This document shows positions 4,206-5,084 of a stretch of 8,085 bases of DNA, piece after piece (position 1 is the first letter of the stretch; each line of letters opens with the position of its first letter). The stretch is from a virus (taxonomy: Duplodnaviria; Heunggongvirae; Uroviricota; Caudoviricetes). The stretch is from IMG/VR virus record IMGVR_UViG_2534682338_000005. The stretch is one strand, 5' to 3'. The notes under the pieces are model-generated. The model was given only the letters and a program-made list of their open reading frames with translations, did not search any database and had not been told where the DNA came from. The translations under genes and the position numbers were made by a program.

Positions 4206-4397
4206 TTAAAGACCTGCCGGGATTTCGATATTATCCTGGTGAATAACTTTATCGACCGGGTAACAGTTACCGGGAATTTTCTGTTCGGTTGCTGCAGTCA
4301 TACACTCCTGCATTGTCCTGTGAACACTGACTGCAATATCAACTGGCTCTCCGGAAACAAGAAAAACTGTCAGAACAAGCGCAAATGCTGAATTCAT
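4206..4397 (-). CDS. ydfD: YdfD-like small protein with N-terminal hydrophobic/TM segment (Qin prophage lysis-associated protein family)
   Basis: 63-aa ORF (MNSAFALVLTVFLVSGEPVD...), ATG at 4395-4397 preceded by AAGGA with 8-nt spacer. Its start overlaps the dicB stop in an ATGA arrangement (4394-4397), the same 4-nt overlap and 63-aa size as dicB-ydfD in K-12. Longer ORF-track start at 4451 rejected. Confidence 0.8.
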   Translation of the reverse strand: MNSAFALVLTVFLVSGEPVDIAVSVHRTMQECMTAATEQKIPGNCYPVDKVIHQDNIEIPAGL

Positions 4398-4582
4398 TGT
4401 GCACATCCTTTTGGCATCAGACGTAAACGAGCCAGCATTGAAACAATGCATATTTTATTTAATAGCTCCCGTTCTTGTTTTCTCTTGTTAATGGCATCTT
4501 CAGTAAATACAGGGTTACTGATAGTGACACCAATTTCAAAACAACCTTCAGACGTATTAACGTTTGGTAATAACGTTTTCAT
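4394..4582 (-). CDS. dicB: DicB cell-division inhibitor (MinC-dependent FtsZ-ring inhibitor, Kil analog)
   Basis: 62-aa ORF MKTLLPNVNTSEGCFEIGVTISNPVF...LMPKGCAQ, matching my recollection of E. coli Qin DicB in length and sequence. ATG at 4580-4582 preceded by GAGGA with 7-nt spacer. Located downstream of DicF in the leftward early operon. ORF-track start at 4687 rejected (no RBS). Confidence 0.9.
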   Translation of the reverse strand: MKTLLPNVNTSEGCFEIGVTISNPVFTEDAINKRKQERELLNKICIVSMLARLRLMPKGCAQ

Positions 4583-4751
4583 TATCGCGTCCTCAACAAT
4601 GAATTTTGTGATGCAGTGCCTGGTGCCTCCAGGTGACGTTAACCAGTTAACAATTAACGCCGGATACAGAGAATCCACCCATAACACTGTTTTTGGTTTT
4701 AACTGTTCCGCGTGCGCTTAGCCGCATTCACCGCATCACAAAATTCACTTT

Positions 4752-4794
4752 AAAAACGGCGGCAGAGCAGTCACGGAGTAAAACTGATACCGCC
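4752..4794 (-). terminator. Intrinsic terminator forming the DicF 3' end
   Basis: On the minus strand, GGCGG (4790-4794) pairs with CCGCC (4758-4762) around an internally structured loop, followed directly by a 5-U run (4752-4756). Confidence 0.7.
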
Positions 4795-4809
4795 AAACGT
4801 CACCAGAAA
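4752..4809 (-). ncRNA. dicF: DicF small RNA (Hfq-dependent antisense regulator of ftsZ and other mRNAs)
   Basis: Minus-strand sequence TTTCTGGTGACGTTTGGCGGTATCAGTTTTACTCCGTGACTGCTCTGCCGCCGTTTTT matches my recollection of the ~53-nt DicF RNA and ends in its terminator hairpin plus U-run. Position between ydfC-like and dicB is as in the Qin dicB operon. Ends are approximate (+/- 3 nt). Confidence 0.8.
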
Positions 4810-5084
4810 ATTGATAACAGAGGGCGTTGCAGCGGGGTTGTCACTTAAGCGTATGGTCAACCTGACAACTCGGTGTCCTCAACGGGGAAGGAATAACCCC
4901 GCCATACTTACCGCCGCGCCATTTCGCGGGTTGCCACAACCGGAAGCGCACGGTCGAATTAAATTTAACGACACCGTACAGTGAGACGAACTTCGCCGTG
5001 CGCTTTCGTGTTGTGTGCCTGCTTTTAACCACGTCAGGCGAGGTGGTATCCTTCTTATTCCGAATAACCAAGAAGGAAATCTAT

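Follow-up and report, generated by a model that had tools for sequence, protein, structure and literature searches.

An inverted repeat between dicF and dicB is the elongated closing helix of a divergent STnc100/PasD-related RNA module and a probable RNase III substrate

The 8,085-nt stretch of viral DNA analysed here (the window) corresponds to the early-left arm of a lambdoid prophage, with genes for an integrase, an excisionase and exonuclease VIII in addition to ydfD, dicB and dicF. The features described below are read from the minus strand, and their positions are collected in Table 1. The DicF small RNA (sRNA) was the sole match when the window was searched against Rfam at gathering thresholds (RF00039, positions 4757-4808, minus strand; 72.5 bits, E = 6e-15, exceeding the gathering score of 48). 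Its 5' end at 4809, one base beyond the Rfam match, is taken from the K-12 annotation, and the window DicF is the same as annotated K-12 dicF save for the final base (G4757 in the window, C in K-12). The product of dicB matches Pfam PF05358 (DicB, E = 2e-40). Its ATG lies at 4582-4580 (minus strand), preceded by a Shine-Dalgarno (SD) sequence, GAGGA, at 4594-4590.

Several E. coli chromosomes match the dicF-dicB segment at 100% identity, and among 5,426 complete E. coli genomes there are 3,962 that contain 80% or more of the 467-nt query spanning dicF-dicB. The Qin prophage of K-12 is nearly identical to the window from ~130 nt upstream of dicF to the dicB start (97% over a 450-nt comparison) and diverges further upstream. 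In annotated phage records, the 174-nt spacer between dicF and dicB carries no annotation. Near-identical E. coli prophage sequence (L133, L136, H52 and H53) was also found in metagenome-assembled genomes bearing the labels Veillonella parvula and Candidatus Nanosynbacter, as well as under the record names of Aeromonas phage AP1 (100% over 247 nt) and of an Actinobacillus phage; all of these matches probably reflect binning or assembly contamination.

Table 1. Features of the dicF-dicB region, in window coordinates.
Feature	Position	Strand	Basis
dicB coding sequence, 62-aa cell-division inhibitor	4394-4582	-	Translation; Pfam PF05358; RefSeq annotation of identical matches
Full-length, sub-threshold match to STnc100 (Rfam RF02076)	4550-4759	-	cmscan, 34.5 bits, E = 7.8e-6
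Helix extension, 3' strand, including dicB SD GAGGA (4590-4594)	4589-4599	-	Folds
Arm 2, 3' strand of closing helix P1, CACUGCAUCACAAAAUUCA	4600-4618	-	Repeat search; covariation
Multi-stem module core	4619-4728	-	RNAalifold consensus, 69 copies
Stem H4, loop AGGCA	4629-4633/4619-4623	-	Compensatory changes
Stem H3, invariant loop UGUUAACUG	4653-4661/4635-4643	-	Compensatory changes
Junction stem J, enclosing a variable insert	4707-4709/4662-4664	-	Compensatory changes
Stem H1	4721-4725/4710-4715	-	RNAalifold consensus
Arm 1, 5' strand of closing helix P1, UGAAUUUUGUGAUGCGGUG	4729-4747	-	Repeat search; covariation; RNAalifold
Helix extension, 5' strand, terminator U-run and AAAG	4748-4757	-	MFE fold; weaker support than the core
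DicF sRNA, 53 nt, including Rho-independent terminator hairpin	4757-4809	-	Rfam RF00039; K-12 annotation
Upstream hairpin, candidate RNase III site for the 5' end of the 190-nt DicF precursor	4940-5012	-	Inverted repeat I5; fold

An initial reading of the sequence alone (the sequence-only reading) had reported a perfect 15-bp inverted repeat bracketing the spacer, with one arm just 3' of the DicF terminator and the other just upstream of the dicB SD. The two arms are indeed exact reverse complements in these positions, TGAATTTTGTGATGC at 4600-4614 and GCATCACAAAATTCA at 4733-4747 of the plus strand, separated by 118 nt, and the Rfam and translation coordinates confirm their placement relative to the terminator and to the SD, which lies 5 nt from arm 2. 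This is the longest perfect inverted repeat in the window for arms up to 400 nt apart. None of 300 dinucleotide-preserving shuffles of the window contained a repeat of 15 nt, the maximum being 14, reached once, and a chance origin was thereby ruled out.

A repeat finder extended the arms to 4600-4618 and 4729-4747 (19 nt, 95% complementary), and the sole non-complementary position is a G·U wobble in the minus-strand RNA, giving 19 contiguous pairs with a duplex energy of -27.8 kcal/mol. K-12 has U for the window C in arm 1, which places U·G where the window has C-G. RNA folding, proposed in the sequence-only reading as a check, recovered the long-range helix when applied to 4570-4815 of the minus strand (z = -5.4 versus shuffles). 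In the MFE structure, the helix comprises 29 pairs with one bulge, formed between 4729-4757 and 4589-4618, and the extended helix has an energy of -35.2 kcal/mol. Outward from the core, the path runs through G4748/A4749 and past a bulged G4597, after which the terminator U-run (4752-4756) is paired with the dicB SD.

To collect homologous copies, public contigs of viruses and genomes were scanned for the 20-nt motif CACCNGGAGGCACCNGGCAC (4616-4635), which occurs once in the window where 0 occurrences are expected by chance. The scan yielded well over a hundred distinct copies, and 69 distinct copies of the dicF type were aligned with MAFFT (alignment A2) and the window helix was mapped onto the alignment. 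Across these copies, 90.2% of the helix cells are paired, as compared with 44-52% in controls with the 3' partner displaced by 1-3 columns, and the former count slightly underestimates the pairing as MAFFT placed the bulged base inconsistently in ~10 rows. The core sub-helices are paired in 93.6% and 99.5% of cells, and the U-run/SD extension, which is rich in G·U, in 78.5%. The sequence-only reading had named a lack of covariation as grounds for its own rejection; compensatory changes on both sides were found in 18 of the 29 helix pairs, and it was not refuted. In 500 column shuffles, none of the three observed values (for pairing, for the covariation score and for the count of compensated pairs) was reached.

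A bulge-aware table of the stems shows exchanges of U-A for C-G and of A-U for G-C in L082 and L183, and of C-G for U-A in L125, and four further loci (L036, L041, L095 and L202) carry an unrelated but perfect 20-bp stem, ACAGACCUUGCAAUGCAGUG/CACUGCAUUGCAAGGUCUGU, around the homologous core. When the 69 copies were submitted to RNAalifold, the closing helix was recovered independently along with four internal stems, and compensatory changes are present in three of these.

Perfect 15-bp arms around a 118-bp segment could also be read at the level of DNA, as a palindrome recognised by a protein, a recombination site or the inverted ends of a small mobile insertion, and in many phages the outer border of arm 2 (query position 263) is indeed the exact point at which homology ceases. 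However, the non-Watson-Crick cells of the core include 56 G·U as against 12 A·C, and the constraint thus acts on the minus-strand RNA helix rather than on DNA. The compensatory substitutions and the tolerance of 1-nt bulges disfavour a DNA element as well, the arms run on into internal RNA stems in which covariation is likewise seen, and neither target-site duplications nor a transposase were found at the repeat. A DNA-level element is therefore considered very improbable.

The helix was placed in a wider RNA family by a permissive Rfam scan at an E-value threshold, the only search in which the relationship was seen. The match to RF02076 (STnc100) spans model positions 1-206 of 206, and the consensus closing helix of the model coincides with the inverted repeat. 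As the score of the window copy is below the gathering score of 47, it was filed as a divergent relative. Canonical copies score 57-132 bits, and a sibling of the dicF type, L125, reaches the gathering score with 47.8 bits. The window module has the architecture of STnc100, namely the closing stem, the GGUGAAU junction and the conserved 3' hairpin stacked on the closing stem. In every retrieved copy, the 5' junction reads GGUGAAU, and there is a first hairpin, an arm that varies and, stacked on the closing stem, the invariant 3' hairpin; the sequence of the closing stem itself varies by lineage. On sequence grounds, the window module is classed as a divergent STnc100/PasD relative and not as a curated member.

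The inverted repeat is therefore the elongated closing helix of a conserved multi-stem RNA of ~130 nt located between dicF and dicB. Of the view that the repeat brackets a spacer, the repeat has stood, but what it encloses is not a mere spacer but a conserved structured RNA module. STnc100 and the related PasD are sRNAs of prophages that are expressed and associate with Hfq, and their function is obscure; accumulation as a discrete, Hfq-associated RNA has been shown for PasD and for some STnc100 copies. No link of STnc100 or PasD to the dicF-dicB spacer was found in the literature examined, and the supplements of the EPEC RIL-seq study contain no entry for dicB or the spacer.

Two elements of the module are strongly conserved. 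The 9-nt loop of H3, UGUUAACUG (4644-4652, minus strand), is invariant in 69 of 69 dicF-type copies. CACCNGGAGGCACCNGGCAC (minus strand) is invariant throughout the family, and an SD-like GGAGG within it lies partly in the H4 loop. The UGUUAACUG loop or the GGAGG hairpin could be a seed or a binding site. The H4 stem reads CCUGG/CCAGG in DicF-linked copies and CCGGG/CCCGG in copies with no DicF upstream. In the window, CACCAGG (within 4619-4633, minus strand) is complementary to the 5' end of DicF, UCUGGUG (4809-4800), over 7 pairs including one G·U. This complementarity may be a phylogenetic correlation only.

An in-phase open reading frame that starts from GTG 4687 (minus strand) runs through the structured spacer into dicB, and the spacer could in principle encode a 97-aa extended form of DicB (4394-4687), in which case the repeat would be a by-product of codon constraint. 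dicB was reportedly described in the first instance, by Cam et al. in 1988, as translated from an in-phase internal start. Against this, in 61 copies the frame ahead of the dicB ATG stays open for as few as 8 and as many as 64 codons, mid-spacer indels are not multiples of three (module lengths are 105-131), and the substitutions are compensatory in stems rather than located at third codon positions. The 97-aa frame is probably not conserved as coding sequence, and an origin of the repeat in codon constraint is scarcely credible.

The sequence-only reading had further suggested that the helix is the RNase III site from which DicF 3' ends arise. Double-stranded substrates of RNase III span about two helical turns (at least ~20 bp, nearly uninterrupted), and the helix described here, with 19 pairs extending to 29, is of this length. 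According to two reviews (PMC5069750 and PMC9438474) that cite Faubladier 1990, a 72-nt DicF species obtains its 3' end by RNase III processing of a full-length transcript. Counted from the DicF 5' end at 4809, the 72-nt length quoted in these reviews leads to 4738, nucleotide 10 of the 19 in arm 1 and the centre of the core helix; as the position is obtained by coordinate arithmetic, it is uncertain by a nucleotide or two. Another review citing the same work (PMC2777011) includes the dicA-dicF-dicB intergenic regions among RNase III substrates. Text searches of the literature on the 72-nt DicF and on dicF-dicB returned nothing beyond these citing reviews.

A separate line of evidence is provided by Table S1 of Gordon et al. 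2017, where site 1649470, annotated as 'dicF-dicB' intergenic, is recorded as rnc-dependent and flagged as known. In those unstranded, low-depth data, the site is spanned by 0 reads in both wild-type replicates and by 26 reads in the rnc mutant. In K-12 coordinates, it is located 8 nt 3' of arm 1, outside the arm and just inside the module. Together with the 72-nt end in arm 1, the length of the helix and its covariation, this site supports the RNase III reading indirectly.

On the 5' side of DicF, Ragunathan 2023 (PMC10448788) described a 190-nt DicF species that is dependent on RNase III, for which the 5' end alone was mapped. The only species given there are of 190 nt and 53 nt, and RNase III is discussed at the 5' side only. 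A length of 190 nt counted back from the terminator end at 4757 leads to ~4946, within the 3' arm of the upstream hairpin (-39.4 kcal/mol, z = -3.5). DicF would thus be bracketed by two RNase III-type helices.

Taken together, the data indicate that P1 is probably an RNase III substrate located between dicF and dicB, belonging to an STnc100-related module that is embedded in the operon. When polymerase reads through the DicF terminator, arm 1 and arm 2 would pair to form the 19-bp duplex, extendable to 29 bp. Cleavage by RNase III in arm 1 at ~4738 would then generate the 3' end of the published 72-nt DicF and part the sRNA from the dicB message. By the rule that RNase III leaves 2-nt 3' overhangs, a staggered cut in arm 2 would be expected at ~4607 (predicted range 4607-4609), creating a new 5' end for the dicB mRNA. 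A double cut would in turn release the module as an RNA of ~130 nt closed by a 9-bp stem; the predicted product, 4737-4608, is 130 nt in length with a 9-bp closing stem, a 2-nt overhang and an MFE of -46.9 kcal/mol. An effect of the helix on DicF termination was excluded by inference, as the polymerase reaches arm 2 only when it is more than 130 nt past the U-run.

The retrieved copies differ in the length of the closing stem according to their setting. In the 73 copies that are not of the dicF type, the closing stem has 6-9 contiguous pairs, a promoter-like sequence (TTGnnn-N16-18-TAnnnT) is present upstream in 18, and a terminator-like hairpin followed by a U-run is present downstream in 36. 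By these features, many of them look like stand-alone sRNA genes. The stems of the 75 dicF-type copies, in contrast, are ~20 bp or more, with 21 contiguous pairs in 37 copies and 10 pairs that resume after a 1-nt bulge in a further 24. A GC-rich hairpin and U-run resembling the DicF terminator lie upstream of 61 of the 75, none has a downstream terminator of its own, and an ORF follows within ~20-55 nt. The downstream ORFs encode DicB variants, a 73-aa Rac-type Kil, an Ash-family protein, a 94-aa protein, acidic proteins of 91-96 aa and 36-aa hydrophobic peptides. By comparison of the two groups, stem length tracks stand-alone versus operon-embedded status, and the long stem (~20 bp or more) looks like an adaptation that would allow an operon-embedded copy to be excised by RNase III.

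This difference bears on the simpler explanation that the helix is purely architectural, serving as the closing stem of an STnc100-like RNA, with RNase III cleavage being incidental or occurring elsewhere in the spacer. All members of the family do have a closing stem at this position, and the coordinate of Gordon et al. 2017 falls just inside the module and not in an arm. However, stand-alone members manage with 6-9 bp, stems of ~20 bp or more are found solely in operon-embedded copies, and these long stems include lineages with unrelated stem sequences. The 72-nt DicF end at the centre of arm 1, as quoted in the citing reviews, also argues against a purely architectural role, which we regard as unlikely.

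A more serious alternative is that the helix acts mainly as a translational gate, in which the dicB SD is locked on the U-run in read-through RNA and the toxic DicB is silenced until the structure is opened. It is possible, if not favoured here, that this is the main role, and the opening might tentatively be assigned to RNase III, a ribosome or a helicase. In a 318-nt model of the read-through RNA, the probability that GAGGA is unpaired is at most 0.07, and it rises to 1.0 in the fragment that starts at the predicted arm 2 cut. The pairs of the extension are 78.5% conserved among the 69 copies, and the genes downstream of dicF-type copies are toxic division inhibitors or small hydrophobic peptides, as a gate would suggest. 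However, the U-run is the only partner of the SD, and the pairing is made through G·U and A-U pairs. In copies located before kilR, the Ash-like ORF and the acidic 91-aa ORF, the ribosome-binding site (RBS) is open (mean probability of being unpaired 0.6-0.75) though the long core helix is kept, and the core helix is thus not explained by SD occlusion.

Two further properties of the dicB leader weaken the case for a gate. The dicB AUG is held in a local hairpin whether or not the long helix is present, a weak 7-bp structure, GAUAAUG/CGUUAUU, at 4569-4586 of the minus strand. After the cut, the DicF tail and the dicB leader, which form the outer half of the helix, would still make a favourable dimer (ddG -12.3 kcal/mol), so that release of the SD would not be automatic. 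In view of the kilR-type and other copies with an open RBS, the idea that the element generally occludes an SD was rejected. As judged by the folding models, SD gating is plausible as a secondary effect limited to dicB-type copies, and not as the reason for the helix. In three dicB loci on viral contigs, L081, L140 and L152, unrelated sequence stands in place of arm 1 and the rest of the module's 5' half, leaving arm 2 and the dicB RBS without a partner. These natural variants, equivalent to a deletion of arm 1, could inform the question of gating.

In rRNA precursor stalks and at the site in the lambda N leader, long-range pairing of ~20 bp or more creates a duplex in which RNase III cuts both strands, so that products are excised or parted, and in the lambda N leader the cut also alters translation of the downstream gene. 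The dicF-dicB element resembles these in that the flanks of a structured RNA pair into a long duplex. It differs in that the upstream product is an sRNA with a terminator, the excised piece is predicted to be sRNA-like, and one of the two cuts is documented.

As cited, the RNase III site of the Qin dicBF operon (Faubladier, Cam and Bouché 1990) lies at the same locus in what is essentially the K-12 sequence, and it is the same element. On the evidence of the works that cite it, RNase III processing was already placed in the dicF-dicB interval in 1990, and the central result is thus rediscovered here. What goes beyond the literature examined on the Qin site is the covariation seen among phages, the extension of the helix to 29 bp and the relationship to STnc100. 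With STnc100 and PasD, which belong to the late region of lambdoid and Stx phages, the window module shares a full-length match and the same architecture. However, those RNAs are stand-alone, adjacent to tRNAs, stx or lysis genes, and have stems of 6-9 bp, whereas the window module lies in an early-left operon between the terminator of an sRNA and an ORF, has a closing stem of 19-29 bp and lacks a terminator of its own.

The new elements are hence the identification of the helix as the covarying, elongated closing stem of a divergent STnc100/PasD module, the relation of stem length to stand-alone or operon-embedded status seen among the retrieved copies, and an SD occlusion that is predicted to be specific to dicB-type copies. 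The RNase III site itself adds nothing on the formation of DicF, and the added value lies in its context. The 'spacer' of a toxic operon is a structured RNA that is kin to an abundant and functionally obscure sRNA family, and the split in stem length offers a simple, testable rule for release of the module.

A tentative extension of the RNase III reading is that the excised module (~4608-4737) is a third product of dicBF, a stable regulatory RNA of the STnc100/PasD kind, and that lambdoid phages have repeatedly paired it and a DicF-like sRNA with genes toxic to the host. Such genes might include dicB, kilR and those for small membrane peptides, and the functional sites would conceivably be its invariant loops, the UGUUAACUG loop and the GGAGG-containing hairpin. 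We hold each of these proposals as a possibility only. Should the module prove to be excised and active, two regulatory RNAs would be encoded by dicBF alongside the DicB protein, and STnc100-type RNAs would gain a genetically tractable representative in K-12.

The genomic surroundings of other copies were also recorded. RalA antitoxin sRNA genes (Rfam RF02694) are found in L011 (11213-11391, minus strand), a locus of the kilR type, and in L087 (86-264, plus strand), a locus of the Ash type. This fits Rac-like prophages and confirms the DicF-like sRNA, the module and kilR as parts of the Rac early-left operon. In one sublineage, represented by L087 (5482-5670, minus strand) and L138 (5208-5396, minus strand), the genes for isrK and the C4 antisense RNA, a P1 immI-like module, come directly after the dicF-type element; the Ash-family ORF predicted in these two loci overlaps the isrK/C4 genes and may not be a genuine ORF.

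Canonical STnc100 copies are often arranged in tandem beside tRNA genes. Such arrays are present in L013 (2265-3380) and L101 (4349-5513 and 8357-8555), with 4 and 6 copies, respectively. STnc100 copies are near tRNA genes in L013 and L007, and an isrI RNA is present among the L101 array. In the P1-family phage P7, the module is present with a closing stem of 9 bp, AUUGCGGUG/CACCGCAAU (L001, ~1490-1620; AF503408.1, ~72440-72570). The P7 copy is situated between tRNA-Thr and terB in the ban operon and is not annotated in the record, and a copy is also carried by D6.
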